In this document: piece by piece, positions 9,394 through 49,740 of the stretch
Position numbering within the stretch: position 1 is the first letter of the stretch
Layout: each line of letters begins with the position of its first letter
Assembly (NCBI GenBank): GCA_964567185.1
Contig: CAZMKZ010000001.1
Span: 13,507-77,506 of the forward strand
DNA: 64,000 nt
Source of the DNA: an uncultured Thermodesulfobacteriota bacterium
Lineage (GTDB): Bacteria; Desulfobacterota; GWC2-55-46; JADFVP01
Direction: 5' to 3'
Translations under genes and position numbers: made by a program
The notes under the pieces: generated by a model
Told to the model about the DNA's origin: nothing
What the model saw: only the letters and a program-made list of their open reading frames with translations
Databases searched by the model: none

Positions 9394-11412
9394 TTAAGGC
9401 TGGTCCTCTGAATAGGGGCTTTCCACTGCCTCTTCTTCCCCTTCGCTCTCCTTTATTATCCTCTCGATTTCGTCTTTTTCAAGGACTTCTTTTTCAAGGA
9501 GGGCATTGGCAAGGTTCTCAAGGGTCTTTCTCTTTGACTTCAGAATCTTCGTGGCCGTTTCTTCGGCCTCTACGATGAGTTTTCTTATCTCCTGATCCAT
9601 GAGCCAGGCCATGTCCTCGCTGTAGCGTTTCGGATGTGAGAGTTCCATGCCGAGGAAGGGGTGCTCCTCGCCCCTGCCGAGGTTAATGGGGCCTACCTTT
9701 TCGCTCATGCCCCACTGGGCGACCATCTTTTCGGCAAGGGAGGTGGCGTCTTTCAGGTCGTTCTGCGCGCCGGTGGAGGTGTCGTTGAAGATGAGCCTCT
9801 CCGATACCCTGCCGCCAAGGGCCACTGCAAGCCTGCTCAGCAGGTAGCTCTTGGGGTAAAAATGCCTGTCTTCAGTGGGTAACAGCTTGGTTACTCCCAT
9901 GGCCATGCCGCGCGGGACGATGGTTACCTTGTGAATGGGGTCGGTATTGGGAAGGCTCTGCGCCACAAGCGTGTGCCCTGCCTCGTGATAGGCTGTGATG
10001 CGACGCTCCAGCTCGTTTATCTTTTCCTCGCGTTTTGCTCCCATGAGGACCTTGTCTATTGCCTCCTCGAAGTCGGCGGAGTTAATCTCATTTTTTCGGT
10101 TTCTCGCGGCGTTTAGTGCCGCCTCGTTGACGATATTTTCAAGGTCCGCGCCTGTCATGCCCGGCGTTCCGCGGGCAGTGCTCTCAAGGTTTACGTCATG
10201 GGCGAGTTTTTTGCCACGGGCGTGTATCTTCAGTATTGCCTCTCTCTCCTTGAGGCCGGGCCTGTCTATGAGTATATGGCGGTCAAACCTGCCGGGGCGC
10301 AGGAGCGCCGCGTCCAGGACATCGGGCCTGTTCGTGGCGGCCATTACGATAACCTCTTCGTGGGCCTCGAAACCGTCCATTTCGCTAAGCAACTGGTTAA
10401 GGGTCTGCTCTCTCTCGTCGTGCCCCCCGCCAAGACCCGTGCCGCGGGTGCGCCCCACGGAGTCGAGCTCGTCGATGAATATGATGCTCGGCTGGCTTTC
10501 CTTGGCCTTCTTGAACATATCCCGTACGCGGGCCGCGCCCACACCGACGAACATCTCTATGAACTCCGATGCGCTGATGCTGAAAAAGGGCACATTGGCC
10601 TCGCCTGCCGTGGCCCTGGCAAGGAGGGTCTTGCCGGTGCCCGGGGGGCCCACAAGAAGGACGCCGCGCGGGACCTTGGCACCTATGTTCTTAAATCTTT
10701 CAGGGTCTTTTAGGAACTCGATGGTCTCCATGAGGTCGGCCTTTACGTTCTCAAGACCGGCTACATCCTTGAAGGTAACGCCCGGTTTGCTCGTGTCGTA
10801 TCGTTTTGCCTTGCTTGAACCAAAGGCGAAGAGCCCGCCGGGGCCGCCCTGCATACCGGCGGAGCGCCTCATGATGAGGACCCAGAAGCCTATGATAAGG
10901 ACCCAGGGCAGGATAGCAAAGACAAACTGCCAGAATATGGAGCCGGTCTCGGAGTCCACGGTGACGGAGACGTGTTTCTTTCTGAGCTCCGCCATGAGCC
11001 CGTCGCCCTGAAAGGAGGGCAGGTTGGTAGTGAAGCCTGTTGGTTCCTTAATCCCCTTATCCTTTATGCCTGTCTCGCCGCCCTCCCTTAAGAGCTCTCC
11101 TGTTACGGTAAGACCCTTTAAAGTAACGGACCTTATCTTTGACTGGTCAAGGAGTTCCATGAATCTGCTGTAGGAGATAGGTTTTCGCTGCGGGACATTA
11201 GTGGCTATGCCCCCCCAGAGGTAGAAGAGCAGGGCGATGGCCAGAAAAGGGAGGATAAAGCTCCACTGTGAGCCCGGAAGGGTAGGTCTCTTCTTGCCGT
11301 TAGCCTTCTTGTTTAAAAGCCTTTTGCCTTTAGGCCTGTTATCTTTAGCCATATAAGTCTTCATTTGCCTTTCAGTAGTTTGTGCGTCAGGGCGCGTGGA
11401 TTTGCGCTTCAT
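9394..11412 (-). CDS. ftsH: ATP-dependent zinc metalloprotease FtsH (the true start may be an internal Met near 11352-11364)
   Basis: TM segment, AAA+ Walker [17 protein letters not shown] region, and zinc motif HEAGH within ...[11 protein letters not shown]. Confidence 0.95.
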
Positions 11413-11624
11413 CTTTAATATAATGCCTTAAGGCGGCCATGTCAAAGGAGTTATAAGAGAAAGACAAGTAAAATCAAGGCAAAAAAGGTTTGATATCCTT
11501 GGAAAAAAAGATTTAAGAGATGAGAGGGCCGCTGTAGTCGCCTCTTTGGCGTGCCATCCTTCTACAAAGCGTAAAATAGTAGCGGATTTTTTGTCACGCA
11601 TGTGAAGGGGGCTGGGGAGGGGAC

Positions 11625-12002
11625 TTACTTTAAATCATTGGGGCTCATAACCCAGACCCTTATTGGGAGGTTGAACTCTTTAATGGTTAGGCGCAGCCTT
11701 TTGAGAAACCGCTCTTCAGGGGTTTTTTCCACTATGATTAGTATGCCAGGTTGCCTTCCTGTCTTTCCACTGTAAAATAGGGCCTGCCCGATGGCCTCGG
11801 CCCATTTATCCGCAAAATCCACCTCCACGGCATAGGTATCCGTAAGGCAATCGACGCGTGTACGGTCTGAGAGCACAACTTCGACCTGCCCGCCGATATG
11901 GCCGCACCAGGACTCCTGATAAACTTTTTCAAGGTGTAAGGTCTTGCTGAAGGCATTTACAGGGGTAAGGAAGATAAAAAAGATTAGCAAAGACTTTGAC
12001 AA
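11625..12002 (-). CDS. small secreted hypothetical protein
   Basis: Signal peptide MSKSLLIFFIFLTPVNAFS. No known motif. Confidence 0.35.
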   Translation of the reverse strand: MSKSLLIFFIFLTPVNAFSKTLHLEKVYQESWCGHIGGQVEVVLSDRTRVDCLTDTYAVEVDFADKWAEAIGQALFYSGKTGRQPGILIIVEKTPEERFLKRLRLTIKEFNLPIRVWVMSPNDLK

Positions 12003-12221
12003 AGACCCCCCGCTTTGTTCTCGGCGTTTCAGCGATATCGGGGAGTCTTATTCTCTGGTGTGCTGGAAACCGTTCTCTACCCAAAATGGGCGGACAACCA
12101 TAGCCCTGTTGAGCTGAAGATTATAATACCACTATATTAACAAAATGTGAACCGTTTTAAATAAAAAAAGTATTTTTTTTGAGGTCCAAGGGCCTTAAAA
12201 GGAGCGGCCTATTCCCCGGCC

Positions 12222-12896
12222 TCATTTTTCCAGTGTTCTTACCAGCTTTTTCGCTATTGAGGGGACGTTTTTCACCGTGCCGTCGAAGATTTCATAAACG
12301 CCTATGTCCTCCTCATCGTAGAACCTTGAGTTGGACTTCTGGTCCGTTACAATGGCCGCCCCTGCCAGCGAGACCCCGGCAAAGAGGCCCCTTGACCTTG
12401 AGTAGGAGTATATCTCCGCCTTCATGGTAACATCCGTTGCCGCCTCGCTGTGGCGTCCCACGGGACCTGCGGCCACGGTAGCGTCGGCGCCGAGGGTGAA
12501 CTTCGCCCGCCTCAGCCCGTCTACGCTCTTTTTTGTCCTGAAGACCAGAATTACATCCGATGATTGCGCTCCAACCTGAAAGCCAAGGCTCGCGCCGGCA
12601 ATGGTGATAAAGGAGGGGTAACTCCAACCTGTTTTGTTGCGAACAACGACAACGCCGCGCCCGAATTTTCCGCCTACCACATAGCCCACCTTTATCACCG
12701 AAGGGATGATTGCTATGGCATGCGCCTCGCGCAGGAGGTCCTCAGGGATGCTCTTTTCCGGTATGGACATGATGTCTTCCATGACCTCTATGGCATCTTC
12801 TACCTTTCTCGTCTCTTTTCTTCCCGCCGAAGCCGGGTATGAGGTCAGTAATATCAGAAAGGCCGCTAAAAGTGCCGTCATCATGTGTTTTTTCAT
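12222..12896 (-). CDS. SYLF (Ysc84/DUF500) lipid-binding domain protein, exported
   Basis: Signal peptide followed by ...IIPSVIKVGYVVGGKFGRGVVVVR...GASLGFQVGAQSSDVILVF...FTLGADATVAAGPVGR, the repeated SYLF pattern. Confidence 0.65.
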   Translation of the reverse strand: MKKHMMTALLAAFLILLTSYPASAGRKETRKVEDAIEVMEDIMSIPEKSIPEDLLREAHAIAIIPSVIKVGYVVGGKFGRGVVVVRNKTGWSYPSFITIAGASLGFQVGAQSSDVILVFRTKKSVDGLRRAKFTLGADATVAAGPVGRHSEAATDVTMKAEIYSYSRSRGLFAGVSLAGAAIVTDQKSNSRFYDEEDIGVYEIFDGTVKNVPSIAKKLVRTLEK

Positions 12897-37941: not shown

Positions 37942-37970
37942 TTGACAGGGCCGTGAGGATATATTATTGT
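37942..37970 (+). promoter_or_regulatory. candidate promoter TTGACA-17 nt-TATTGT driving the riboswitch transcript
   Basis: -35 hexamer at 37942-37947 and -10 at 37965-37970, about 25 nt upstream of the riboswitch P1 stem. Confidence 0.45.
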
Positions 37971-37995
37971 CATAGCACAATTGAATAAATGGATA

Positions 37996-38150
37996 TCTTA
38001 TCCAGAGTGGTGGAGGGACTGGCCCGATGAAACCACAGCAACCGGTGCATCACTGCATGTCAGGTGCTAAATCCAGCAGGGTTTGCAAAAACCCTGAAAG
38101 ATAAGAAGAACTAAGAGACCCTCTTCTTATCCCAAGAAGAGTTTTTTTTT
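37996..38150 (+). ncRNA. SAM-I (S-box) riboswitch with intrinsic terminator expression platform
   Basis: TCTTATCCAGAGTGGTGGAGGGACTGGCCCGATGAAACCACAGCAACC...CTGAAAGATAAGAAG. The GGTGGAGGGACTGGCCCGATGAAACC core matches the SAM-I kink-turn/P2-P3 consensus, and P1 is TCTTATC/GATAAGA. A terminator CTCTTCTT-ATCCC-AAGAAGAG plus T9 lies at 38121-38150, and its 5' arm can alternatively pair with the P1 3' strand. Confidence 0.85.
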
Positions 38151-38218: not shown

Positions 38219-39472
38219 ATGAAGTACATGAAAGGATTAAAGTGCAGGGAGTGCGGGAAGCGCTATCCCCTGGAACCGATCCATGTCTGCGAGTTCTGTT
38301 TCGGGCCCCTTGAGGTGGACTATGATTACGAGAAGATAGGCAAGTCCATTACCAGAGACATCATTACCACCAGAGCCCCTAATATGTGGAGATACAGGGA
38401 GTTGCTTCCCATAGACGCCGAGCCCACGGTGGGCAACAACTCCGGATTTACGCCCCTTGTAAGGGCCTATAACCTGGGCGAGGCCCTGGGCGTTAAAGAA
38501 CTGTACATAAAGAACGACGCCGTTAATTTCCCGACCCTCTCTTTCAAGGACAGGGTGGTCTCCGTGGCCATCTCAAGGGCCAGAGAGATGGGCTTTGACG
38601 TCATCGCCTGCGCCTCAACGGGCAACCTGGCCAACTCCGTTGCCGCCAACTCCGCGGCCTGCGGCCTTGATAGCTATGTCTTCATACCCTATGACCTTGA
38701 GCAGACCAAGATAACGGGAACCCTTATCTACGGCACTAACCTCGTGGGCATAAAGGGGACCTATGACGAGGTGAACAGGCTCTGCAGCGAGATAGGCGGC
38801 AAATACGGATGGGCCTTTGTAAACATCAACATCAGACCCTTTTATGCCGAGGGCTCCAAGACATTCGGCTACGAGATAGCCGAGCAGTTGGGCTGGAAGC
38901 TCCCGCAGCACGTTATTGTGCCCATGGCCGGGGGCTCTCTCATCACAAAGATATGGAAGGCCTTCAAGGAGTTCAAGGCCCTTGGTTTTGTCGATTCTCC
39001 GCCGGCGAAGATATACGGCGCGCAGGCAACGGGATGCGCCCCCATAGTAACGGCTGTTAAGGAAAAGAGCGAGCTCATCCGTCCGGTCATGCCCGATACT
39101 ATCGCCAAATCCCTTGCCATCGGCAACCCGGCCGACGGCTTTTACTCCGCAAGGGCCATCAGGGAGAGCAATGGCTGGGCCGAGGACGTTTCAGATGAAG
39201 AGATAATCGAGGCCATGAAGCTCCTTGCCGAGACAGAGGGCATTTTTGCCGAGACAGCCGGCGGCGTTACCGTGGGCGTGACTAAAAAACTCATCGAGCA
39301 GGGCAGGATACCCCGTGACGAGTCCATAGTCATCTCCATTACGGGCAACGGCCTTAAGACTCAGGAGTGCCTGGCGGGAAAAATCGCCGAGCCCCCTGTA
39401 ATAGAGGCTAAACTTGCCGAGTTCGACGCCCTGCTTGAGGGCGGCTCCGTGCGGAAGACGGCGGTAAAATAA
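38219..39472 (+). CDS. threonine synthase-like PLP enzyme (fold type II) with an N-terminal zinc ribbon; candidate O-phosphohomoserine-dependent homocysteine synthase (MetM-like, MA1715-like)
   Basis: CRECGKRYPLEPIHVCEFCFGPLEV zinc ribbon. PLP lysine motif FPTLSFKDRVVSV. ThrC-like length of 417 aa. First gene after a SAM riboswitch. Confidence 0.8.
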   Translation: MKYMKGLKCRECGKRYPLEPIHVCEFCFGPLEVDYDYEKIGKSITRDIITTRAPNMWRYRELLPIDAEPTVGNNSGFTPLVRAYNLGEALGVKELYIKNDAVNFPTLSFKDRVVSVAISRAREMGFDVIACASTGNLANSVAANSAACGLDSYVFIPYDLEQTKITGTLIYGTNLVGIKGTYDEVNRLCSEIGGKYGWAFVNINIRPFYAEGSKTFGYEIAEQLGWKLPQHVIVPMAGGSLITKIWKAFKEFKALGFVDSPPAKIYGAQATGCAPIVTAVKEKSELIRPVMPDTIAKSLAIGNPADGFYSARAIRESNGWAEDVSDEEIIEAMKLLAETEGIFAETAGGVTVGVTKKLIEQGRIPRDESIVISITGNGLKTQECLAGKIAEPPVIEAKLAEFDALLEGGSVRKTAVK

Positions 39473-39677
39473 GGGACGGGGCGTGATCGGGGGAGGCCCG
39501 TAGAGTATTGGCGCGGGGCAGGATTAACCGGCAGGGCCTGTGCAATATAACAAGGGCTGCCCGGTAGAGAGGCGGGTTCGGCTTGTAATAGTGACCCTCT
39601 TTCTGTTATCATTAGGGTTTAAGAAATATAAAAATTTTCCCTCTAAGAGGGGCGGTTTTCTTAAGGAGGTTTTTTTT

Positions 39678-40673
39678 ATGACGGACCATTTCATAGAGGA
39701 TAAGAGCCATAAGGTAGACCTTGACCTTGAGAACCTCAGCGGTAAGGTTAACTTCGGCGACCTCAAATCCGGGGGGTTCATAAAGCAGCGCCAGAAGGAC
39801 CTCTTTACCGTAAGGCTCCGCTGTCCCGGCGGCAGGATGACTACGGACAAGCTCGTGGAGATATCGAGGCTCGCAAAAAAATACAGCAAAGAGGGTGTGG
39901 TGCACTTCAGCTACCGCCAATCCCTTGAGATACTATATGTGGATTATAAGGACTTTCACGCCCTTGTGGGCGAGCTTGAGAAGATAGGTCAGAAAGTGGC
40001 CTCATGCGGGCCCCGTGTAAGGGTGCCCACTGCCTGCGGCGGATGCGAGTATAACCCCAACGGGCTTATAGACGCGCAGAAGATGGCCCGCATGGTGGAC
40101 GGTAAGTTCTTCGGAACAAATACGCCGCATAAGTTCAAGACCTCTTTTTCGGGCTGTCCCATAGATTGCTCAAGGACCGTTGAGATGGACCTCGGTTTTC
40201 AGGGCGTAGTGGACCCCGAGTGGGAGCAGGACCTCTGCACGGGATGCACCATCTGCTCCGAGGCCTGTAAAGAGGGGGCCATTGAGGCCCACCCCGATAC
40301 AGGAGAACCAATCTTCGACGTTAGTAAATGCCTTTACTGCGCCGACTGCATACGGGCCTGTCCCACCGAGGCGTGGAAACCCGGCAAGCACGGCTTTCTT
40401 GTGCGCATTGGCGGCAAACATGGCCGTCATCCCCTTGAGGGCGTTGAAATCTGCCGTTTCCTACCGGAGGAAAAGGTAAGCGACGCCATAGAGATGACCG
40501 TCAGGTGGTATAAAGAAAACGGCAAGAGTTTCGAGAGGATAGGGCACACCCTGCAGAGGGTGGGCATGGACGGTTATCTTGACCACATGGCCCCGCTCTT
40601 CGGTGATTATGCCGTTAGACCAAAGCATCCGCCCACGGACCGTCCGCTGATCAATAAGCCCGAAGGGGCCTGA
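39678..40673 (+). CDS. small dissimilatory-type-like sulfite reductase (Dsr-like, alSiR-type) with an inserted 2x[4Fe-4S] ferredoxin domain (start ATG 39678 with RBS AAGGAGG)
   Basis: NIR_SIR-type Cys cluster SCGPRVRVPTACGGC ... GCPIDCSRT. Ferredoxin motifs CTGCTICSEAC and CLYCADCIRACP. Confidence 0.7.
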   Translation: MTDHFIEDKSHKVDLDLENLSGKVNFGDLKSGGFIKQRQKDLFTVRLRCPGGRMTTDKLVEISRLAKKYSKEGVVHFSYRQSLEILYVDYKDFHALVGELEKIGQKVASCGPRVRVPTACGGCEYNPNGLIDAQKMARMVDGKFFGTNTPHKFKTSFSGCPIDCSRTVEMDLGFQGVVDPEWEQDLCTGCTICSEACKEGAIEAHPDTGEPIFDVSKCLYCADCIRACPTEAWKPGKHGFLVRIGGKHGRHPLEGVEICRFLPEEKVSDAIEMTVRWYKENGKSFERIGHTLQRVGMDGYLDHMAPLFGDYAVRPKHPPTDRPLINKPEGA

Positions 40674-40788
40674 TTAGCCGCGCTTCATTGGGTCGGGTAT
40701 GGATAATGGGGGGTAATCGGCGCAGTGGGTTTTCAGCTTTCGCCGGGAACCCGAAACATAACAGATCAGGACAAACGGTAAGGTTGAT

Positions 40789-41028
40789 ATGAGTGAGATA
40801 AAGGCAAAGGACAGCATCGATTTAAGGGGCGTCATGTGTCCCACAAACTTTGTAAAGACCAAGCTCAAGCTCGAGGCCATGAACCCCGGCGAGATACTCG
40901 AAGTGGTGCTTGACAGCGGCGAGCCTATCGCCAACGTGCCGAAAAGCGTCAAGGAAGAGGGACACAAGATAGTCAAGGTAAGCAAAGACGACGGCTCATT
41001 CAGGATTTTGATAGAGGTCTCTGAATAG
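40789..41028 (+). CDS. TusA/SirA-family sulfurtransferase-like protein
   Basis: 79 aa. ...IDLRGVMCPTNFVKTKLKLEAM... is a Cys-Pro TusA-like motif in a two-layer alpha/beta fold. Confidence 0.65.
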   Translation: MSEIKAKDSIDLRGVMCPTNFVKTKLKLEAMNPGEILEVVLDSGEPIANVPKSVKEEGHKIVKVSKDDGSFRILIEVSE

Positions 41029-41063
41029 CCCCTAATAAAGTTTTCAAGTACAAGGAGGAGAGT

Positions 41064-41348
41064 ATGTCAGTAAAGGTGAGGATACCCACACCCCTGAGGA
41101 AGATTACAAAGGACAACGACGAGGTCACTGCCGACGGGGCCACGGTCTCCGAGGTAATAGACGACCTGGAGAAAAACTATCCGGGAATAAAGGAGAGGAT
41201 ATGCGAGGCCGACGGGAACCTCCGCCGCTTTGTAAACCTCTATCTCAATGACGAGGACATTCGCTTCAAGGATAACCTCGCTACTGCACTGAAAGACAAC
41301 GATGAACTCTCCATCATTCCGGCCATCGCCGGAGGAGGTGGCCTTTGA
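41064..41348 (+). CDS. ThiS/MoaD-family sulfur-carrier protein (CysO/HcyS/MetO-like) whose C-terminus ...AIAGGGG-L* needs proteolytic exposure of Gly-Gly
   Basis: 94 aa beta-grasp pattern with a glycine-rich C-terminus followed by a single Leu before the stop at 41346-41348. Confidence 0.7.
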   Translation: MSVKVRIPTPLRKITKDNDEVTADGATVSEVIDDLEKNYPGIKERICEADGNLRRFVNLYLNDEDIRFKDNLATALKDNDELSIIPAIAGGGGL

Positions 41349-41581
41349 AAAAAAAGGTCTATCTAACCTATCCTCCGGAGAGGGTGAGAGAGCCTCTTCT
41401 CTGTGAGTGCGTGCGCAGGTTCAATGTCGTAACCAACATAAGGCAGGCCTCTGTTACGGACAAGATAGGCATCGTGGCCCTTGAGCTCGAAGGCGAGCCC
41501 ACGGAGATAGAAAAGGCCATGGACTTTTTTACTGAAAACGGCGTGAAGGTCGAGCCTATTGAGATGAATATTATCGAGTAG
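41345..41581 (+). CDS. stand-alone NIL-domain protein (the MetN C-terminal-type domain). TTG start overlaps the carrier-gene stop by 4 nt (TTGA); RBS GGAGGAGGTG
   Basis: KVYLTYPPERVREPLLCECVRRFNVVTNIRQASVTDKIGIVALELEGEPTEIEKAMDFFTENGVKVEPIE aligns by eye to the MetN NIL domain (LTFTGE...PLISEL.RRFGVDVNIL.GNIE...G.L.VELEGD...ALAYL.E.GV.VEVL). Confidence 0.7.
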   Translation: MKKKVYLTYPPERVREPLLCECVRRFNVVTNIRQASVTDKIGIVALELEGEPTEIEKAMDFFTENGVKVEPIEMNIIE

Positions 41582-41679
41582 CGCCCTCTCACCTTTCCCC
41601 GTCCTTGTCCAAAGGACGGGGAGCCTTGCAAATTCAACTCCCATTGGATTCTTTTCCTTGAAATCACTGCATATTATTC

Positions 41680-41706
41680 TTGACAAACCCGCTAAGGTAT
41701 TATAAT
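41680..41706 (+). promoter_or_regulatory. possible internal promoter (TTGACA-15 nt-TATAAT) upstream of the CysM-like gene, preceded by a 10-bp hairpin CCCCGTCCTT-GTCCA-AAGGACGGGG at 41594-41619
   Basis: Hexamers and hairpin seen directly. The spacer is short at 15 nt. Confidence 0.3.
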
Positions 41707-41810
41707 TTAAAAACTTGATTGTTTTAGTAAGGTAATAAAAAATGCCTTGTAAAAAGCGAGGTTTTAAGGCGCCTCTCCATAATGCTTAACATAATTCCAA
41801 GAGGCCTTGA

Positions 41811-42767
41811 ATGAGCAGCCATACCTTGAAGAGTTTTGACGCAGGGAACGAGTTTGCCATCCCGAAGGCGAGGTCCTCGGCCCTTGACCTTGTGGGCAAT
41901 ACGCCCCTTGTGAGGATAAACAGCATTACAGCGGGTCTTCCAGCCGGCGTAGAGGTATACGCCAAGCTCGAGTCCGCCAACCCCGGGGGCTCTGTAAAGG
42001 ACAGGCCGGCGCTCCGTATGATAGAAGACGCCGAGAAGAGCGGAAGGCTTACCAGGGATAAGATAATACTGGACTCCACATCGGGAAACACGGGCATTGC
42101 CTATGCGTGGATAGGCGCCGTAAAGGGCCATCGCGTAGAGCTGGTGGTTCCGGAAAACGTCAGCGCCGAGAGAAAAAAGATACTCGACGCCTTTGGGGCC
42201 AAGGTCATATTTTCAAGCCCCTTCGAGGGCTCCGACGGTGCGATACGTCTTGCCTGGAAGCTCTACGTGGATAACCCCGAAAAGTACTGCAAGCTCGATC
42301 AGTACAATAACCCCTCCAACCCCCTTGCCCATTACCATGGCACGGGAGTTGAGATAATCGAGCAGACAGGGGGCAGGATCACGCACTTTGTCACCACCAT
42401 AGGCACGGGCGGCACCATAATGGGGACCATGCGCAGGCTCAAGGAGTTTAACAGCAATATCGAAGTAACCGCCGTTGAGCCCGACAACCCCATGCATGGG
42501 CTTGAGGGCCTGAAACACATGGCCTCGTCCATAGTGCCGGGCATCTATCACGAGGACTCGCTGGACAGGAAGATACCGGCCTCCACCGAAGAATCTTACG
42601 AGATGGCCAAGAGGCTAGCCCGTGAAGAGGGCCTTCTTGTGGGGCAGTCATCGGGGGCGGCCATGCTCGGAGCGCTCAAGGTGGCCATGGAGCTTAAAGA
42701 GGGTCTTGTTGTGACAATATTCCCCGACGGCGGAGATAAGTACCTCTCCACAAGCCTCTGGGATTAA
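41811..42767 (+). CDS. cysteine synthase-like PLP enzyme (CysM/CysK family, fold type II)
   Basis: GNTPLVRINSI...VYAKLESANPGGSVKDRPALRMIEDAEKSGRL...DSTSGNTGIAYAWIGAVKGH is the classic CysK/CysM N-terminal half, including the PLP lysine. Confidence 0.85.
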   Translation: MSSHTLKSFDAGNEFAIPKARSSALDLVGNTPLVRINSITAGLPAGVEVYAKLESANPGGSVKDRPALRMIEDAEKSGRLTRDKIILDSTSGNTGIAYAWIGAVKGHRVELVVPENVSAERKKILDAFGAKVIFSSPFEGSDGAIRLAWKLYVDNPEKYCKLDQYNNPSNPLAHYHGTGVEIIEQTGGRITHFVTTIGTGGTIMGTMRRLKEFNSNIEVTAVEPDNPMHGLEGLKHMASSIVPGIYHEDSLDRKIPASTEESYEMAKRLAREEGLLVGQSSGAAMLGALKVAMELKEGLVVTIFPDGGDKYLSTSLWD

Positions 42768-43010
42768 GGGCTACGGGGAGCCCGGGCAGATTATTATTTT
42801 AAATGGCTGACAACAGCCGGTATTGATTTTTTTGGCCTGTCTTTTTTTGAAAAAAGAAGGCCACGCGGTTTTTTTTGATGGTTTCGGCTTCACGGGTTAT
42901 GCTTTGCTTTGTCCATCGTGCAAGTGTTTCCATGCGGCTACAGGCCGCTTATAAATGTGATTAAAGGGGCGTATTGCCCATAACGTGTAAATAAAGATAA
43001 GGGGCAAGTA

Positions 43011-43463
43011 ATGGGTCTACTCTCAAAGTTCAAGAAAAAGAATAAGCTGAAGGTGCCTAAGGACGTTTACGATATCATCATTGAACATGCCAGAGAGGAG
43101 TATCCCCATGAGTGTTGCGGAGTTCTCATAGGTAACGCCATGATGGGCAGAAAGATATTCTACGCCGACAAATGCACGAACCTGAACCGCGAGAGCGCAC
43201 ATAACAGGTATCTCATGGACCCCAAGGAGATAAATCTTGCCGATAAGGGTGCGCGCTCGCAGAGCCTTGAGCTTATGGGCTTTTATCACTCTCATCCGGA
43301 CCATCCGGACAGGCCCTCGGAGTACGACAGGGAGATGGCCCAGCCCGGATACTCATATATAATAGTCTCCGTAAAGGGCGGTACCGAGTTCTCCTTGAAG
43401 TCATGGACCTTTAACGAGGACGATGAACCCTTCAAGGAAGAGCCCGTGGAGATAGGCAAATAA
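43011..43463 (+). CDS. JAMM/MPN+ family metalloprotease (Mec+/HcyD/QbsD-like)
   Basis: E...ECCG, HSHPDHPDRPSEYD (JAMM motif HxHx7Sx2D). 150 aa. Confidence 0.85.
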   Translation: MGLLSKFKKKNKLKVPKDVYDIIIEHAREEYPHECCGVLIGNAMMGRKIFYADKCTNLNRESAHNRYLMDPKEINLADKGARSQSLELMGFYHSHPDHPDRPSEYDREMAQPGYSYIIVSVKGGTEFSLKSWTFNEDDEPFKEEPVEIGK

Positions 43464-43584
43464 AAACCCGGAGGGGTATGTTTGCAGTATACTTTCGGCG
43501 TTAGCGTCCCTGTAATGGGGTGAGTTTTCTTTTTTTGCCGCGATACTACATTTTGTTTTTGCATAGAGGGGGTTAGAGGTCAAG

Positions 43585-44394
43585 ATGGATTTTACCGATG
43601 AACAGATAGAGCGTTACTCAAGGCATATCATACTTCCGGAGGTAGGCGGAAAGGGGCAGGCAAAGCTCCTTGAGTCCAGGGTCTTTGTCCTCGGCGCGGG
43701 GGGGCTCGGTTCTCCGGCCCTGCTTTACCTTGCCGCGGCGGGCGTGGGCACCATAGGGGTTGCAGACGGCGACGTTGTGGATGTAAGCAACCTTCAGCGC
43801 CAGATAATACACGACAACAATACCGTTGGTATGCCAAAGGTGGATAGCGCGCGAAAGTCCATTGAGGCCCTTAATCCCGATGTTGAGGTAAAGACCTTTA
43901 ACGGCAGACTTGATACGGAGAACATCAGAGAGGTCCTTCGGGATTACGATGTGGTCCTTGACGGCTCTGATAATTTTCCAACGCGCTACCTCATGAACGA
44001 CGCCTCTTTTTTCGAGGGCAAGACCCTTGTCTCGGGGTCCATGTTCAGGTTTGACGGGCAGGTCTCTGTCTTCAAGCCGCAGGAGGGCTTTCCCTGTTAC
44101 AGATGCCTCTACCCGGAGCCCCCGCCAAAGGGCATGGTTCCGTCCTGTCAGGAGGCCGGTGTGCTTGGGGCCCTTGCGGGAGTTATAGGGGTACTGCAGG
44201 CCGTGGAGGCCATAAAAGAGATACTCTCCATCGGCAAATCCCTTGCCGGCGAGCTCTTGATATTCGACGCCCTTGCCATGAGTTTCCGCAAGGTCAAGGT
44301 GCGCACAGACCCTGATTGCGCGCTCTGCGGCGGGAATGCTACCATAAAGGAGCTCTCGCTCTATGAGCAGGCCCCATGCGAGCTGCGTACCTGA
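43585..44394 (+). CDS. ThiF/MoeB/HcyF-type E1-like adenylyltransferase (no rhodanese domain)
   Basis: RYSRHIILPEVGGKGQAKLLESRVFVLGAGGLGSPALLYLAAAGVG nucleotide-binding motif. C-terminal Zn motif CYRC...CALCGG. Confidence 0.85.
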   Translation: MDFTDEQIERYSRHIILPEVGGKGQAKLLESRVFVLGAGGLGSPALLYLAAAGVGTIGVADGDVVDVSNLQRQIIHDNNTVGMPKVDSARKSIEALNPDVEVKTFNGRLDTENIREVLRDYDVVLDGSDNFPTRYLMNDASFFEGKTLVSGSMFRFDGQVSVFKPQEGFPCYRCLYPEPPPKGMVPSCQEAGVLGALAGVIGVLQAVEAIKEILSIGKSLAGELLIFDALAMSFRKVKVRTDPDCALCGGNATIKELSLYEQAPCELRT

Positions 44395-44461
44395 TTCGGC
44401 TTTTCGGACTTATGCCGCAAACAGGGGACGGAGAAAGCGGTCTTTTACCTGAGGCGGTTGA

Positions 44462-45697
44462 GTGGTATTGAAAAGCCTGGATTACTTCAAGAACCCCGGA
44501 GCCCTTAAGATAGACCTTATGCTGAGGGGGGCGGCCATAGAAGACCCCCTTGTGAAGGCGCATGCCTGCGGGGCCTCTGGCATAGATATACTCCTGCCTA
44601 AAAAGACCCTCGTAAACATCCCCTGCGAAGACTGGTTTACCGTGCGCTCCCCTTATCTCATTAAAAAGTCTGAAAAGGGGTATGTCCTTACAAACGGCAA
44701 GGCCGAGGTCAGGGTAAGCATACTTCCGCCGCCGAAGTTTTACGGACTGAAGACAAGTTCAGGCGTAAGGCTTGGAGAAATAGCCAGCACTCACGGGAGT
44801 TACACCGTCATAACGCCCGACCAGAGGTGCGCTTTTTTTAAATCAAGCGCCCAGTGCCGTTACTGCGCGGGAAACTTCAGGTCCGACGCCGCCGCGTCCG
44901 GCGCGCGCGTCTATACAGTAGACGAGGTATTAGAGACAGTAAAAGCGGTATTCAGGGAGAGGGCCTCCGGGATAATATACCTCTCAATAGGTTTTGCCGA
45001 GGGCGATGACGGGGGTATAAAATTTCTTGAGCCCTATGTAAGGGCCATTAAGGGGCATTTTAACTGCCTTGTCGCAGTAGAGGCCCTGCCCCCCGCGCGA
45101 AACGAGTGGATCGACAGGGCGTACGCCAGCGGCGTTGATTCACTGCTCTATAACCTTGATATCTTTGATAAGGAGCTTTTTTCCATAATCTGCCCGGGCA
45201 GGGCCGGCCTCATAGGCAGGAAGAGGACCCTTGAAGCCCTGAAATACGCCGCGGGTATCTTCCCTAACGGCACGGTGGCCTCGCACCTCATTGTGGGGCT
45301 TGAACCGCCGGGTTCCACTATCATGGGCATAGATTATCTTACGGATATCGGCGTAGTGCCCATACTGCCCATATTCCGGCCTTCAAGGGAGAGGCCCCTT
45401 GATGTTACGGACCTTCATGCCGAGGTGATTATACCGGTATATCAGCACCTGTACCGGTCCTTGAAGAAAAAGGGCATTAACTTCAACTGGGTCCGCGACA
45501 TAAGCATGGTGACAACCCCCGTGGAGGGCAGGTTCCTCCTTGGGGAAAAAGAGGGCTCAGCCTCTCTGCTTGATAATTTTTACGGCTCAAAGCTCGGCCT
45601 TAAGACGGCATGGGGGCTCTCGGCCCTTCGAAGGCGGCTGCGGGTAAAAAAGCCCGCCAATGAAGAAAACCCCCCAGGCGGGTCTGAAAAGACATAA
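44462..45697 (+). CDS. uncharacterised protein with the Cys triad CAFFKSSAQCRYC (CX8CX2C). Possibly a non-canonical radical-SAM-like TIM-barrel enzyme, or alternatively the COG1900/DUF39 homocysteine-synthesis protein
   Basis: GTG start. 411 aa. Glycine-rich stretch IYLSIGFAEGDDGG about 35 aa after the Cys triad, and later ...VPILPIFRPSRERPL, reminiscent of radical SAM beta-strand motifs. No canonical CX3CX2C. Confidence 0.35.
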   Translation: MVLKSLDYFKNPGALKIDLMLRGAAIEDPLVKAHACGASGIDILLPKKTLVNIPCEDWFTVRSPYLIKKSEKGYVLTNGKAEVRVSILPPPKFYGLKTSSGVRLGEIASTHGSYTVITPDQRCAFFKSSAQCRYCAGNFRSDAAASGARVYTVDEVLETVKAVFRERASGIIYLSIGFAEGDDGGIKFLEPYVRAIKGHFNCLVAVEALPPARNEWIDRAYASGVDSLLYNLDIFDKELFSIICPGRAGLIGRKRTLEALKYAAGIFPNGTVASHLIVGLEPPGSTIMGIDYLTDIGVVPILPIFRPSRERPLDVTDLHAEVIIPVYQHLYRSLKKKGINFNWVRDISMVTTPVEGRFLLGEKEGSASLLDNFYGSKLGLKTAWGLSALRRRLRVKKPANEENPPGGSEKT

Positions 45698-45710
45698 AGG
45701 GAGTATTACC

Positions 45711-47135
45711 GTGAGAGTGGAGATAGACAGGAGGCCCATATCAATAATCATCGCCAATAAGGCGCTGAGGCCCCTTTTTTTCCTTCTCCTTACGGTGGGA
45801 TTTTTCTCATTCCTATACCTCCCCGTGCCCGAGGGGCTGGGGCAGGGCGGCATGAGGGCCATAGCCGTCTTTCTTCTATGCCTTGTGCTCTGGGTCTCAA
45901 ATGCCGTTCCCGTGGCCATTACGGGGCTCTTCGCCATAGTCCTCGTGCCGCTTCTGGGCATACTGCCAAGGGGCGATACGTATTCCCTATTCGGCAATGA
46001 GGCCGTGTTTTTCATACTCGGCGCCTTTATCCTCTCCGGGGCGGTCATGCAGTCCGGCCTCTCGAACAGGGTGGCCCTGCGGCTGATGGAAAAATACGGC
46101 GGCTCTCCGAAGAGGCTTATCATAAGCATATTTCTTCTCGCCGCGGCACTCTCATTCGTAATGAGCGAGCACGCCGTTGCGGCCATGCTCTTTCCCATAG
46201 TGCTTGAGATATCAAAGAGCCTGAAGCTCCGGCCCGGCGTTTCCAACTACGGAAAGCTCCTCTTCTTTGCCCTTGCCTGGGGTTCGGTCATAGGCGGGGT
46301 GGGGACCTTTCTCGGCGGAGCGCGTGTGCCCCTTGCCATGGGCATTCTGAAGGAGACCACGGGCTCTACCATAGGCTTTCTGGATTATACCGTGGCCGTC
46401 GCGCCCCTTGTCGTGGTGCTGCTGGTGGTGGGATACATCGTGCTGACAAGGTTCTTTCCCATTGACATCGAGGGCGTAGAGAGCGCGCACGAGGTCATTG
46501 TAAGGCGCGCCCGCGCCCTTGGCAAGGTGCGCCCGGCAGAGTACGCCGTAGGGGCCATACTCCTTATTACCATCTTTTTCTGGGTGACCATTGGCAAGAC
46601 CGTGGGCCTTGCCGCCATCGCCATGGTCTCGGTGATGGCCCTCTTTGTATTGAAGCTCGTAAAGTGGCGTGAAATTGAGGAGTATGTGAACTGGGGAATA
46701 ATCCTCATGTACGGCGGGGCTATTATCCTCGGCACGGCCCTTGACAGGAGCGGCGCCGCCAAATGGATGGTAGACGCCATTATGACTCAATGGGCCGAGA
46801 CGCCGGTGACGGTGCTGGCGCTCTTTTCACTCCTGGCCATACTGCTCACCGAGTCCATGAGCAACGCCGCCGTCATCGCCGTGCTCCTGCCCGTGAGCAT
46901 CGGCATGGCCGGAAGCACCAATATGAGCCCGGAAGTCCTTACCTATGCCGTGGCCATTCCGGCGGGTCTGGCCTTTATGCTGCCCATGAGCACGCCGGCC
47001 AACGCCATCGCCGTATCAAGCGACTACATATCCGTGCGCGATATGGCAAAGGGAGGGGTGATAATGTTCATCACCTCATGGGTCACCTTTAATCTCATGG
47101 CCCATTTTTACTGGCCCCTCATAGGGCTAAGGTAG
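45711..47135 (+). CDS. SLC13/DASS-family anion permease (Na+/sulfate symporter-like). Start at GTG 45711 with RBS AAGGGAG; the track start 45660 overlaps the upstream gene
   Basis: Polytopic. The PVPEGLGQGGMRAIAVFLLCLVLWVSNAVPVAITGLF hairpin-loop motif is typical of DASS transporters. Confidence 0.65.
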   Translation: MRVEIDRRPISIIIANKALRPLFFLLLTVGFFSFLYLPVPEGLGQGGMRAIAVFLLCLVLWVSNAVPVAITGLFAIVLVPLLGILPRGDTYSLFGNEAVFFILGAFILSGAVMQSGLSNRVALRLMEKYGGSPKRLIISIFLLAAALSFVMSEHAVAAMLFPIVLEISKSLKLRPGVSNYGKLLFFALAWGSVIGGVGTFLGGARVPLAMGILKETTGSTIGFLDYTVAVAPLVVVLLVVGYIVLTRFFPIDIEGVESAHEVIVRRARALGKVRPAEYAVGAILLITIFFWVTIGKTVGLAAIAMVSVMALFVLKLVKWREIEEYVNWGIILMYGGAIILGTALDRSGAAKWMVDAIMTQWAETPVTVLALFSLLAILLTESMSNAAVIAVLLPVSIGMAGSTNMSPEVLTYAVAIPAGLAFMLPMSTPANAIAVSSDYISVRDMAKGGVIMFITSWVTFNLMAHFYWPLIGLR

Positions 47136-47224
47136 GGTTGGGGCAAAACCTGGCGGGTTTATGGGAAAAAATACCGATAAACCCGCCATTATTGTTTACC
47201 TTCCAGAGGATTTAGGTTAAAATA

Positions 47225-47689
47225 ATGGGCAATAAAATACTACTCGTTCTATCGACTCACTCGTACTCGGACCAGGCCGTTGAATATGCTGTCACGAGGG
47301 CCGCGCAGGAGGGCCGTGTGCTTGTGGCCTTCTTTCTGCTTGAGTCGGAGCTTGCCAGAGAGGCCTCGGAGAGGTTCTCGGATATCGGCTTTACAGGCGA
47401 CAAGCCTTCGGCCACGCTCACGGAGTCTCTTATGCGTGAGTACAGGCAGAGGGGCTACGAGGCCCTTGGCAGGGCGCAGATAAGGGCCATGGAGGAGGGC
47501 GTGAGCTTTGAGCCTCTTCTGGATGAAGGGCCTTATGTCTCCACCATACTCGATGCCATAGAGGTCAATGATATAGGACTTGTGGTTATACAGAAGCGCA
47601 GGGAGAGGTCTCTTTTCAAGTACTTTAAAAAGGGTCTTTCCGCAGAGGTGAAAGAGATGGCCTCCTGTGAGGTCGTTATAGTGGAGTAA
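47225..47689 (+). CDS. universal stress protein (UspA family)
   Basis: 154 aa Usp alpha/beta fold. NKILLVLSTHSYSDQAVEYAV...CEVVIVE. Confidence 0.75.
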   Translation: MGNKILLVLSTHSYSDQAVEYAVTRAAQEGRVLVAFFLLESELAREASERFSDIGFTGDKPSATLTESLMREYRQRGYEALGRAQIRAMEEGVSFEPLLDEGPYVSTILDAIEVNDIGLVVIQKRRERSLFKYFKKGLSAEVKEMASCEVVIVE

Positions 47690-47724
47690 TGTAAATTCAT
47701 CACGGTTGAAAGGGAGGATTCAAA

Positions 47725-48432
47725 ATGGCAGTAAAGAAGTGGTCTGAAGAAGAACTTAAAGAGGTATCCGCGGAGCTTGAAGACAAGGGGCCGCAGGCGG
47801 CCATTCAGTGGGCCGTGGACAATTTTGAGAGGCAGGACCTGTCCCTTGCCTGTAGCTTCGGCGCCGAGGATGTAGCCCTGGTGGATATGCTCGTGAAGAT
47901 AAAACCTGACGCCAGGATATTTTATCTTGATACAAACAAGCTCTTTAAGGAAACCATTGATGTTATGGAGCGCCTTAAGGAGAAGTACCACATAAACCCT
48001 GAAAAATACTGCACAAAGATGAGCCTTGAGGAGCAGGCCGAAAAATTTGGACCTGAGCTCTGGAAAAAAGACCCCAAGCAGTGTTGCGATATCAGGAAGA
48101 TAAAACCTCTTAGAGAGGCCCTGTCTGGGCTCAGCGCATGGATAACTGGCATAAGAAGGGACCAGGCCCCTGCAAGGGCCAATGCCCCTGTCGTTGGCTG
48201 GGATTCCATGTTCAACCTGGTGAAGATAAACCCCCTTGTCAAATGGACGAGCGACGATGTATGGGATTATATCCGCGCCAATGACGTGCCCTACAATGTG
48301 CTCCACGACAGGAATTATCCCTCCATCGGCTGTGAGCCATGCACCAATGAGGTAAAACCCGGCGAAGACCCCAGGGCCGGAAGATGGGCTGGTTTCAAGA
48401 AGACCGAGTGCGGCCTTCATGACAAATCATAG
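47725..48432 (+). CDS. cysH: assimilatory adenylyl-/phosphoadenylyl-sulfate reductase (CysH family, Fe-S type)
   Basis: PAPS_reduct fold (SFGAEDVALVDMLVKI). Fe-S Cys pairs KQCCDIRK and IGCEPCT. Catalytic C-terminal ECGLH. Confidence 0.85.
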   Translation: MAVKKWSEEELKEVSAELEDKGPQAAIQWAVDNFERQDLSLACSFGAEDVALVDMLVKIKPDARIFYLDTNKLFKETIDVMERLKEKYHINPEKYCTKMSLEEQAEKFGPELWKKDPKQCCDIRKIKPLREALSGLSAWITGIRRDQAPARANAPVVGWDSMFNLVKINPLVKWTSDDVWDYIRANDVPYNVLHDRNYPSIGCEPCTNEVKPGEDPRAGRWAGFKKTECGLHDKS

Positions 48433-48520
48433 ACATAACCAGTATGAGGTTGCTGCTTCAATATATTGATTTATCAGCCTTTATGTCTTTTAACCCACAG
48501 CATAAGGAGGTTCTCTAAAA

Positions 48521-49684
48521 GTGGAGTCATTGATACCGCCCCATGGCGGCGTGCTTGTTAACAGGGTCGTAGAGGGTAAGGCCCGTCTTGATATGGAAAA
48601 AGCCTCTCTTGATATGAATACCCTCACCCTTAATGCGAGGGAGATATCAGACCTTGAGATGATAGCCACGGGCGGGTTCAGCCCCCTCGAGGGGTTCATG
48701 TGTCATGACGATTATCACTCTGTCATGGATACCATGACGCTGATAAACGGCCTGCCCTGGACCATACCCGTAACCCTTTCTGTAACCACGGAGGAGGCGG
48801 CCGGACTTAAAGAGGGCGTGGATGTTGCCCTTAATAACGAAAAAGGGGAGCTTCTCGCTATCCTTCATCTTGAGGAGATTTTCAAGCATGACAAGGAAAA
48901 AGAGGCCCTTCGAGTATACGGCACCGCCGAAGACGCGCACCCGGGGGTGAAAAACGTCTATGCAATGGGCGAGATGCTTCTTGGCGGCAAGGTCTCCATG
49001 CTCAAACGCACCGAGTACGGCGAGTTCAATGAATACCGCAGGGACCCGCTTGAGACAAGACAGCTCTTCAAGAAGAACGGCTGGAGGCGTGTTGTGGGCT
49101 TTCAGACAAGAAACCCCATACACAGGGCCCATGAGTACATACAGAAGTGCGCCCTTGAGACAGTTGACGGTCTTCTCATACACCCCCTTGTGGGCGAGAC
49201 AAAGGCCGACGACATACCTGCCGATGTGCGGATGCGTTGCTACACGACCCTTATGGAGAAGTATTACCCCGCCGACAGGGTAGTGCTCTCCGTATACCCG
49301 GCGGCCATGCGCTACGCAGGCCCCCGTGAAGCCGTCTTTCATGCCCTGATTCGCAAAAATTACGGCTGTACGCATTTTATCGTAGGCAGAGACCACGCAG
49401 GGGTGGGCGGGTATTACGGCACCTTTGACGCCCATCTCATATTCGACCAGTTCGAGCCCGAGGCCATAGGCATAGCGCCCATGTTCTTTGACTATACCTT
49501 TCATTGCAGGAGCTGCGGCGGCATGGCCTCGTACAAGACCTGCCCCCACGATTCATCGGAGCATATTACCCTTTCGGGAACAAAGGTAAGGGAGATGCTG
49601 AGGGCCGGAACGTGCCCTCCGCCTGAATTCTCAAGGCCGGAGGTGGCAAAGGTCCTCATTGAAGCCATGAAGCCGGCGGATTAA
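48521..49684 (+). CDS. sat: sulfate adenylyltransferase (ATP sulfurylase)
   Basis: GTG start with [26 protein letters not shown] and GRDHAGVG motifs. Confidence 0.9.
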
Positions 49685-49710
49685 GGACGGCTCTCAACCA
49701 GCGTCATTAA

Positions 49711-49740
49711 AAGGCCCCTCATGGAGGGGTCTTTTTTTTT
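49711..49740 (+). terminator. rho-independent terminator after sat (GGCCCCTC-ATG-GAGGGGTC plus T10)
   Basis: Perfect 8-bp GC-rich stem followed by ten T residues. Confidence 0.7.

Follow-up and report, generated by a model that had tools for sequence, protein, structure and literature searches.

The 64,000-nucleotide stretch of an uncultured Thermodesulfobacteriota genome analyzed here, referred to throughout as the window, carries at 38219-49684 of its forward strand thirteen co-oriented genes of sulfur assimilation. The ninth of these (44462..45697, +; 411 amino acids from a GTG start) encodes a variant radical S-adenosylmethionine (SAM) protein with a CX8CX2C cysteine motif and is the center of this study. 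As an earlier note made from the sequence alone had placed it, the gene stands between those of an E1 enzyme (ThiF, 43585-44394) and a permease, the latter a DASS transporter (45660-47135), and the cluster as a whole follows a SAM-I riboswitch. We hold with high confidence that the protein is a true member of the radical-SAM superfamily and a dedicated part of a SAM-regulated, thiocarboxylate-based operon leading from sulfate to cysteine and homocysteine. The E1 or JAB gene, the radical-SAM gene and the DASS gene form a conserved module within SAM-riboswitch-controlled carrier-protein operons of at least three phyla, and this module is new as far as we have found.

The cysteine triad that drew attention to this protein is present as described, in the string CAFFKSSAQCRYC, with C123, C132 and C135 encoded by 44828..44866 (+) as the presumed [4Fe-4S] ligands and an aromatic residue, Y134, inside CxYC. 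The two later strings singled out in the earlier note are likewise in place, the glycine-rich strand IYLSIGFAEGDDGG at residues 171-184, 36 residues past C135, and VPILPIFRPSRERPL at residues 299-313. The GTG start given there (44462, with GAGG 7 nucleotides upstream) is usable, but a TTG at 44468 is equally possible, and a database protein identical to that of the window (P0001) is 409 residues long. The same note had made its reading depend on the cysteines being conserved in orthologues, and all three are invariant among 32 homologues of 57-88% identity (alignment A1); C244 is invariant in the same set, and C55 and C202 are nearly so. Our wider homologue set comprised 165 related loci and the window protein, of which three sequences end at a contig edge before the motif. 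Of the 162 sequences in which the motif is covered, 158 keep the CX8CX2C spacing, one has CX9CX2C and three have lost the triad; C244 is widely conserved yet not universal across this wider family. The motif is not due to chance.

Profile and structure comparisons together support the reading of this protein as a non-canonical, radical-SAM-like putative enzyme. PF04055 matches residues 131-279 at 30.5 bits, a narrow margin over its cut-off of 29.5 (Pfam scan), and the NCBIfam model NF045502 (variant_rSAM) matches residues 62-310 at 166.3 bits against a cut-off of 125, while TIGR04043 (the MSMEG_0568 family) shows homology over residues 37-340 at 109.8 bits, below its cut-off of 303.7. Among the NCBIfam equivalog models LipS2 (23.7 bits vs 270), BioB (11-12 vs 225-377) and HmdB gave traces only, and thiH gave no match in that scan. 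A search of the Protein Data Bank with the family profile returned no radical-SAM chain at E<=1, and it was fold comparison of the predicted model alone that recovered a (beta/alpha) barrel of the radical-SAM type, with scores for HydG, PylB, HydE and ThiH nearly equal to that for LipA. The chain divides into a family-specific N-terminal domain (~1-105), which is confidently modeled and has no structural relative in our structure comparison, the barrel (~108-340), and a basic C-terminal helix ending ...LRRRLRVKK. In hhalign alignments to Escherichia coli LipA and BioB, which have low probabilities (BioB 12%, LipA 9%, each template being a single sequence) and cover the putative SAM-binding motifs, C132 and C135 fall on the second and third cysteines of both enzymes, and C123 falls on the first cysteine of LipA across a 5-residue gap. 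The same low-probability alignments pair GDDGG, LYNLD and HLIVGLE with RDDLRDGG, (F/Y)NHNL(E/D) and (M/I)VGLG(E) of LipA/BioB. The CX8 spacing thus reads, on these alignments, as a five-residue insertion within an otherwise ordinary BioB/LipA-class core, and the structural class is very probably that of BioB, LipA, ThiH and HydG. The earlier note implied an unrecorded spacing, but CX8CX2C is already listed by RadicalSAM.org, where Megaclusters 4-6-1, -3, -5 and -6 inside the biotin/thiazole-synthase megacluster carry it (PMC9477430), and it is modeled by NCBIfam. Family and spacing alike are therefore on record and the motif itself is no discovery; the novelty lies in the context. Public database records name the relatives "radical SAM protein" or "hypothetical", and our literature search returned no functional study of this family or motif, nor of "radical SAM" combined with sulfur-carrier terms. 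A chemical analogy to ArsL, a radical-SAM enzyme that moves the aminocarboxypropyl group of SAM onto arsenite, would have a sulfur nucleophile receive that group and yield homocysteine; it was also considered and rejected: ArsL has a canonical CX3CX2C motif with an RCCLKC tail and belongs to another subfamily, and making homocysteine from SAM by such a route would be stoichiometrically futile.

Clues to what this protein does lie in the genes that accompany it. GTDB genomes, when scanned, yielded 75 loci, every one of them from an uncultured member of Thermodesulfobacteriota or "Deltaproteobacteria". These show the gene order of the window wherever the contig permits, and in them the radical-SAM protein drops to 47% identity while ThiF keeps 73% or more. 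In rate of divergence the radical-SAM protein resembles DASS, the universal stress protein (Usp) and JAB and exceeds E1, CysM and ThrC. A further 80 metagenome loci were added with a narrower alignment (A3), the divergent alignment A2 being too variable for a metagenome scan, and neighboring genes were annotated by tblastn with curated queries. Annotation of crude open reading frames with iterated hidden Markov models was dropped, since radical-SAM and ThiF sequences were drawn into the JAB and TusA profiles, and long upstream extensions of frames in GC-rich loci mimicked fusions of the radical-SAM protein to DASS. Context was counted over 124 loci, non-redundant at 90% identity, from Thermodesulfobacteriota, Binatia, Myxococcota and metagenomes. 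The upstream neighbor (n=101) is ThiF in 60 cases, a short ThiF or degenerate E1 subunit in 24, JAB in 14, and ThiS, an E1 fragment and another gene in one each, so that an E1, E1 subunit, JAB or ThiS gene stands directly upstream in 100 of 101 loci; DASS stands directly downstream in 86 of 93.

In the metagenome loci and around the matches of an exhaustive profile search, these neighbors recur in three different arrangements. Type A, that of the window, runs ThrC, sulfite-reductase-like protein (SiR), TusA, ThiS, NIL, CysM, JAB, ThiF, radical-SAM, DASS, Usp, CysH, Sat. Type B, from Binatia and soil, runs ThiF, ThrC, ThiS, CysM, NIL, short ThiF, radical-SAM, DASS, in some loci Usp, and Sat, with neither JAB nor TusA. 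Type C, from Myxococcota and marine samples, runs S-adenosylhomocysteine hydrolase, ThiF (in some loci fused to TusA), ThiS, E1 fragment, JAB, radical-SAM, DASS, Usp and a 7Fe ferredoxin, with no pyridoxal phosphate (PLP) enzyme. Sulfite reductase and APS (adenosine 5'-phosphosulfate) reductase genes are absent from the type B and C neighborhoods, where the radical-SAM gene is retained. By Pfam and NCBIfam the E1s encoded in the clusters, that of the window included, have no rhodanese domain. That the adjacency is kept in different gene orders and in several phyla, and is accompanied by gene fusions, argues for a functional link and not inherited synteny. DASS is lacking beside the radical-SAM gene at five loci (L081, L082, L091, L094 and L095); at L082 the gene that follows (11207-12700) encodes 497 residues with about nine predicted transmembrane segments and has no Pfam or NCBIfam match. 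In type C loci we also observed the S-adenosylhomocysteine hydrolase gene directly upstream of the module (L080 6703-7962, L168 6539-7798), preceded by a DsbA-like gene, and the 7Fe ferredoxin (Fer4 and DUF3470) after the transporter.

Fusions join the radical-SAM protein to both kinds of neighbor. In one locus (P0133/L076) JAB and the radical-SAM protein form a single frame directly after ThiS, and in another (P0164/L165) the radical-SAM protein is fused to DASS and followed by CysD/CysN, with a second fusion to DASS in P0240. In the fusion to DASS the C-terminal LRRxLRV helix leads straight into the first transmembrane segment. Three homologues have lost the triad. In L162 (3362-4501), L163 (2052-3254) and L164 (1034-2221) N231 of LYNLD and the cysteine of the CPG motif are gone as well, and all three retain the N-terminal LK(L/I)(E/D)L region and the C-terminal RRxLRV helix. 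The loss in L162 is a clean deletion of about 27 residues, within the order ThrC, ThiS, CysM, E1 fragment, X, DASS, Usp, where X is the radical-SAM homologue; in L163 all three cysteines are replaced, within the order NIL, PALP, JAB, ThiS, X, DASS, and L164 lies in another context. These three are likely pseudoenzymes. The persistence of cysteine-less homologues in the same context with both termini kept suggests that part of the role is independent of the cluster, and this part is probably docking. The C-termini of homologues such as L079, L081, L125, L155 and L162 go on past an invariant LRRxLRV[KR] helix: type B proteins carry a conserved tail, V[SE][DE]S[FY][DE]S[SA]xL-COOH, many type A relatives end in histidine, and the window protein (45628-45694) ends ...PPGGSEKT.

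On their assignments, the remaining genes of the window cluster supply every other step between sulfate and cysteine or homocysteine. It opens with a ThrC-like PLP enzyme with an N-terminal Zn-ribbon (38219..39472, +; PF00291 and a NinF ribbon), a candidate MetM-type homocysteine synthase that scores 293.9 bits against 167.1 for the threonine synthase model TIGR00260. MetM is commonly misannotated as threonine synthase (GapMind 2026), and the paralogue here plausibly plays the MetM role, a thiocarboxylate route from O-phosphohomoserine (GapMind 2026; Hasebe 2024). There follow a small sulfite-reductase-like protein with a ferredoxin insert (39540..40673, +; NIR_SIR, NIR_SIR_ferr and Fer4, with the sulfite_red_C, dsrA and dsrB models below cut-off), a TusA/SirA-like sulfur-transfer protein (40789..41028, +; PF01206, 79 bits), a carrier of the ThiS/MoaD/SAMP1 type with the C-terminus ...AGGGGL (41064..41348, +; PF02597, and NF041918 SAMP1 at 69.5 bits vs 60), a stand-alone NIL domain protein (41345..41581, +; PF09383, with a weak match to the MetN C-terminal domain) and a CysM/CysK-type cysteine synthase (41811..42767, +; PF00291, and TIGR01136 cysKM at 348.8 bits vs 344). 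A JAB/Mov34 metalloprotease of the Mec+/desampylase type (43011..43463, +; PF14464, with NF041370 desampylase at 84 bits, below cut-off) precedes the rhodanese-less ThiF/MoeB-type E1 (43585..44394, +; PF00899, 267 bits), in which Arg-finger, GxGxxG and SNLxRQ are all present. Downstream of the radical-SAM gene come the DASS (Na+/anion) transporter (45660..47135, +; PF00939, and TIGR00785 dass at 254 bits vs 198.6), presumed to import sulfate, the universal stress protein (47225..47689, +; PF00582), an assimilatory APS/PAPS (3'-phosphoadenosine 5'-phosphosulfate) reductase, CysH (47725..48432, +; NF002537 at 275 bits vs 154, TIGR02055 at 246.9 vs 235.3), and ATP sulfurylase (48521..49684, +; NF003166 at 572 bits vs 387). 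For the transporter, GTG 45711, with a ribosome-binding site AAAGGGAG 7 nucleotides upstream, is a likelier start than ATG 45660, and with it the radical-SAM and DASS genes are separated by 13 nucleotides and do not overlap by 38. The score of CysH above the cut-off for thioredoxin-dependent APS reductases fits the lack of an APS kinase gene in the cluster; by eye the same protein (47725-48432) shows CC...CxxC and a C-terminal ECGLH. The cluster very likely combines sulfate import (DASS) and reduction (ATP sulfurylase, APS reductase and the sulfite-reductase-like protein) with a ThiS-thiocarboxylate relay (ThiS, E1, JAB and TusA), and in all likelihood its sulfur endpoints are cysteine, through the CysM-like enzyme, and homocysteine, through the ThrC/MetM-like one.

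Control by SAM is indicated by the leader of the cluster. A SAM-I (S-box) riboswitch aptamer lies at 37995..38107 (+; Rfam RF00162, 94 bits vs a gathering threshold of 44.4, E 2.7e-21), and a consensus scan places a promoter-like site upstream of it (37942-37970), a terminator-like hairpin with T-run that is probably its expression platform downstream (38121..38141, +), and a strong terminator-like hairpin with a 12-bp stem and T-run at the end of the cluster (49709..49735, +). With these signals in place, 38219-49684 looks like a single SAM-repressed transcription unit, in which internal promoters are possible. The riboswitch heads the cluster in 7 of 7 type A loci, in 6 of 7 type B loci and in L082; the positive loci are the window, L002, L012, L020, L027, L118, L119, L145, L081, L110, L125, L131, L155, L159 and L082. 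It was not found at L079 or at any of the five Myxococcota-type (type C) loci tested.

In types B and C the activating enzyme appears to be divided between two genes. The "full" ThiF of these loci has GxGxxG and SNLxRQ in 23 of 23 cases and the N-terminal Arg-finger motif in 0 of 23, whereas the short ThiF-like gene adjoining the radical-SAM gene has the Arg-finger in 34 of 37 cases, the 130-residue fragment has it in 4 of 6, and nucleotide-binding motifs are missing from both. Such pairs lie at L079 (6993-7769 and 9279-10004), L081 (5857-6585 and 9435-10004), L168 (7963-8868 and 9163-9552) and 23 further loci. From its motifs, the type B/C E1 looks like the product of two complementary genes, a bacterial E1 that would work only as a heterodimer, in the manner of eukaryotic E1s. 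The short ThiF-like gene had also been considered as an adaptor for the radical-SAM protein, a candidate that was set aside in favor of the complementary half of a split E1 on the same motif analysis. ThiS in clusters without JAB ends in GG plus one extra residue in 14 of 24 cases, e.g. AIAGGR or AIAGGA (L125, L131-L133, L155, L081 and other type B loci); with an extra residue on the tail and no JAB in the cluster, another protease must trim it.

The radical-SAM protein is probably a missing part of this sulfur-assimilation pathway. Our proposal, which we regard as possible and offer tentatively, is that it serves as an Fe-S- and SAM-dependent accessory that supplies or reductively releases sulfur onto adenylated ThiS while docking E1-ThiS to the transporter. 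Domain, motif, fold, gene order, fusions and riboswitch have all been observed, whereas binding of the cluster and of SAM, contacts between the proteins and the chemistry are what we infer here. A [4Fe-4S] cluster would be ligated by C123, C132 and C135, leaving its fourth iron to bind SAM. The protein would dock the E1/ThiS complex on one side and, through its conserved basic C-terminal helix, the cytoplasmic face of DASS on the other. Sulfur would then be delivered, or reductively released, onto the E1-adenylated C-terminus of ThiS to give the thiocarboxylate ThiS-COSH, the one step of charging that has no assigned enzyme in these rhodanese-less systems. Rhodanese domains supply sulfur to the carrier in MoeZ-type E1s; the E1 here lacks this domain and type B clusters lack TusA, which leaves no other sulfur-transfer candidate encoded in type B clusters. 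Cysteine-less forms in the same operon fit an accessory catalytic step that free sulfide could bypass, together with a retained docking role. Several points weigh against this proposal. An acyl-adenylate and sulfide can yield a thiocarboxylate without any radical step. Every conserved motif is of the kind that binds SAM or the cluster and is uninformative on the substrate, C244 is the one further cysteine with wide conservation, which gives no sign of a sacrificial auxiliary cluster, and every fusion type is supported by one or two contigs. Classical ThiS/E1/JAB sulfate-assimilation operons (class 4e) moreover work with no radical-SAM protein (PMC1779556). We consider it somewhat doubtful that the protein uses radical-SAM/[4Fe-4S] chemistry to transform the activated C-terminal end of a ubiquitin-like sulfur carrier, which would be a kind of reaction that has yet to be described; such chemistry could amount to ThiS being charged with sulfur at the sulfate transporter's mouth, or to radical C-S bond formation with a protein thiocarboxylate as donor, in effect a "radical cysteine/homocysteine synthase".

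Much of the same evidence can be read differently. The radical-SAM fold might instead serve as a sensor or scaffold that binds SAM and an Fe-S cluster reporting sulfur status and gates DASS, perhaps also E1, with the methionine-binding NIL domain of MetN as a parallel. No other three genes stay together as constantly as those of the radical-SAM protein, DASS and Usp, DASS being the next gene downstream in 86 of 93 loci, and where the radical-SAM protein and DASS are fused the LRRxLRV helix is continuous with the first transmembrane segment. Such a role would also suit conserved motifs that all bind SAM or the cluster, cysteine-less and motif-degenerate homologues that persist in the operon, a divergence rate like that of DASS, Usp and JAB and above that of E1, CysM and ThrC, the pairing in classical operons of an ABC importer with the absence of a radical-SAM protein, and an operon already SAM-responsive through its riboswitch. 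We nevertheless regard it as unlikely: we know of no precedent for a radical-SAM fold that acts purely as a sensor, the cysteine triad is kept in 159 of 162 homologues across phyla, regulation of the transporter alone leaves the E1/JAB linkage (100 of 101) and the fusion to JAB unexplained, and some loci have the radical-SAM gene but no DASS. It is rather unlikely, in turn, that the protein is a C-S-bond-forming radical-SAM enzyme that abstracts hydrogen from an unactivated carbon as LipA and BioB do, takes its sulfur from ThiS-COSH instead of an auxiliary cluster and has its ThiS-linked product freed by JAB; its product would be a third sulfur metabolite, or cysteine or homocysteine made by a radical route. 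This reading would give the radical chemistry a purpose, suits the weak LipS2 and BioB sequence matches and the fusion to JAB as consecutive steps, and fits type C clusters, where the PLP synthase is missing and the radical-SAM protein would be the sole candidate user of the thiocarboxylate. Against it, the close fold scores of HydG, PylB, HydE and ThiH to that of LipA mean that the fold is not specific to sulfur insertion, CysM- and MetM-like synthases are already present in types A and B, no candidate for the substrate is known, and the triad-less L162 and L163 in the same operon are hard to square with an indispensable and unique product.

Two further explanations fare less well. An enzyme acting for another partner in the operon, either in cofactor maturation of the sulfite-reductase-like protein or APS reductase or in processing an imported anion (thiosulfate, sulfite or an organosulfonate), would be at home among co-operonic sulfate-reduction genes and beside the ferredoxin gene that follows the module in type C, and siroheme genes are part of S-box-regulated sulfate operons in Bacillus. 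We judge this improbable, as the radical-SAM gene stays in types B and C, which have no sulfite or APS reductase genes nearby, and its constant partners are E1, JAB and ThiS together with DASS. The earlier note had also suggested that the protein might be the missing COG1900/DUF39 sulfur-insertion partner of the aspartate-semialdehyde route to homocysteine. The support for this was circumstantial: the setting is one of homocysteine synthesis and includes both a NIL domain and an Fe-S protein, as does the known pathway (PMC5764234). The suggestion is refuted: PF01837 (DUF39) gave no match even at E<=10, PF04055 being the sole return of the Pfam scan, NF045502 is matched as well, and the fold is a radical-SAM barrel, so that the chance of its being correct is next to nil.

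Should a radical-SAM reaction at the activated end of the carrier be borne out, it would define a new and widespread module of sulfur assimilation in bacteria. The source of the carrier's sulfur where the E1 has no rhodanese is an unsettled question, and few organisms are known to make cysteine and methionine by way of a protein thiocarboxylate. The radical-SAM protein is a testable candidate for a step that sulfur assimilation is missing, or for a new point of control. Its gene is spread through Thermodesulfobacteriota, Binatia and Myxococcota and through many metagenomes of soil, groundwater and marine origin, and in most cases lies downstream of a SAM riboswitch. The protein also offers a first functional foothold for the large CX8CX2C "variant" radical-SAM family, in which no member has a known reaction.

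Comparison with described radical-SAM families sets the window protein apart by context. It matches the NF045502 model and has the cysteine spacing of the CX8CX2C subgroups of Megacluster-4-6 (PMC9477430). NF045502 is a broad family, in which 1707 cluster representatives were matched by our profile search, and of the 150 best some 60 align over the full length with the LRRxLRV helix included. The family has many architectures and no assigned function, and to it the clade of the window adds a C-terminal region ending LRRxLRV[KR] and a fixed context of ThiS/E1/JAB and DASS. The distant members P0247, P0256, P0231 and P0255 are fused to ATP-grasp or to a second, RaSEA-like radical-SAM domain. The MSMEG_0568 family (TIGR04043, Nit1C cluster) shares the N-terminal domain and the variant motif but lacks the C-terminal helix, its profile matches ending near residue 335, and its operon encodes a nitrilase, a GNAT protein and an AIR-synthase-like protein, none of which is encoded near the radical-SAM gene in the window. 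Taken with the E1 link, the ATP-grasp and RaSEA-like fusions and the Nit1C AIR-synthase-like gene point to possible ATP-dependent carboxylate-activating partners, with which the variant_rSAM family may generally associate. LipA/LIAS and BioB differ in their CX3 spacing, in auxiliary-cluster ligands that have no counterpart here, and in a lipoyl or biotin context that is likewise missing here. In contrast to the ThiS/ThiF/ThiG/ThiH thiazole pathway, no locus in our set has ThiG, and the operon is SAM-riboswitch-controlled and devoted to sulfate assimilation and to cysteine and homocysteine.

Among pathways, the methanogen and Desulfovibrio route through COG1900/DUF39 and a NIL-ferredoxin shares with the window the combination of NIL and an Fe-S protein for homocysteine (PMC5764234), but the radical-SAM protein is unrelated to DUF39 in sequence or fold, NIL stands alone, and sulfur would pass through ThiS. 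The closest relatives are the thiocarboxylate systems. In class 4e of Iyer, Burroughs and Aravind (2006), genes of sulfate assimilation accompany those of ThiS, JAB, SirA and an E1 that lacks rhodanese (PMC1779556), and this gene set, with a GG-tail carrier, rhodanese-less E1, JAB, SirA/TusA and sulfate activation and reduction, is complete at 38219-49684. With class 4e, CysO-CysM-Mec+-MoeZ of Mycobacterium tuberculosis, HcyS-HcyF-HcyD-MetY-Sir of Wolinella succinogenes and MetM-MetO of Streptomyces, our clusters have in common the GG-tail carrier, E1, JAB, SirA/TusA, PLP synthases, ATP sulfurylase and the APS/PAPS and sulfite reductases. None of these systems includes a radical-SAM protein, and the clusters described here differ from them further in a DASS transporter in place of the ABC importer, in the added NIL protein and, in types B and C, in the apparently split E1.

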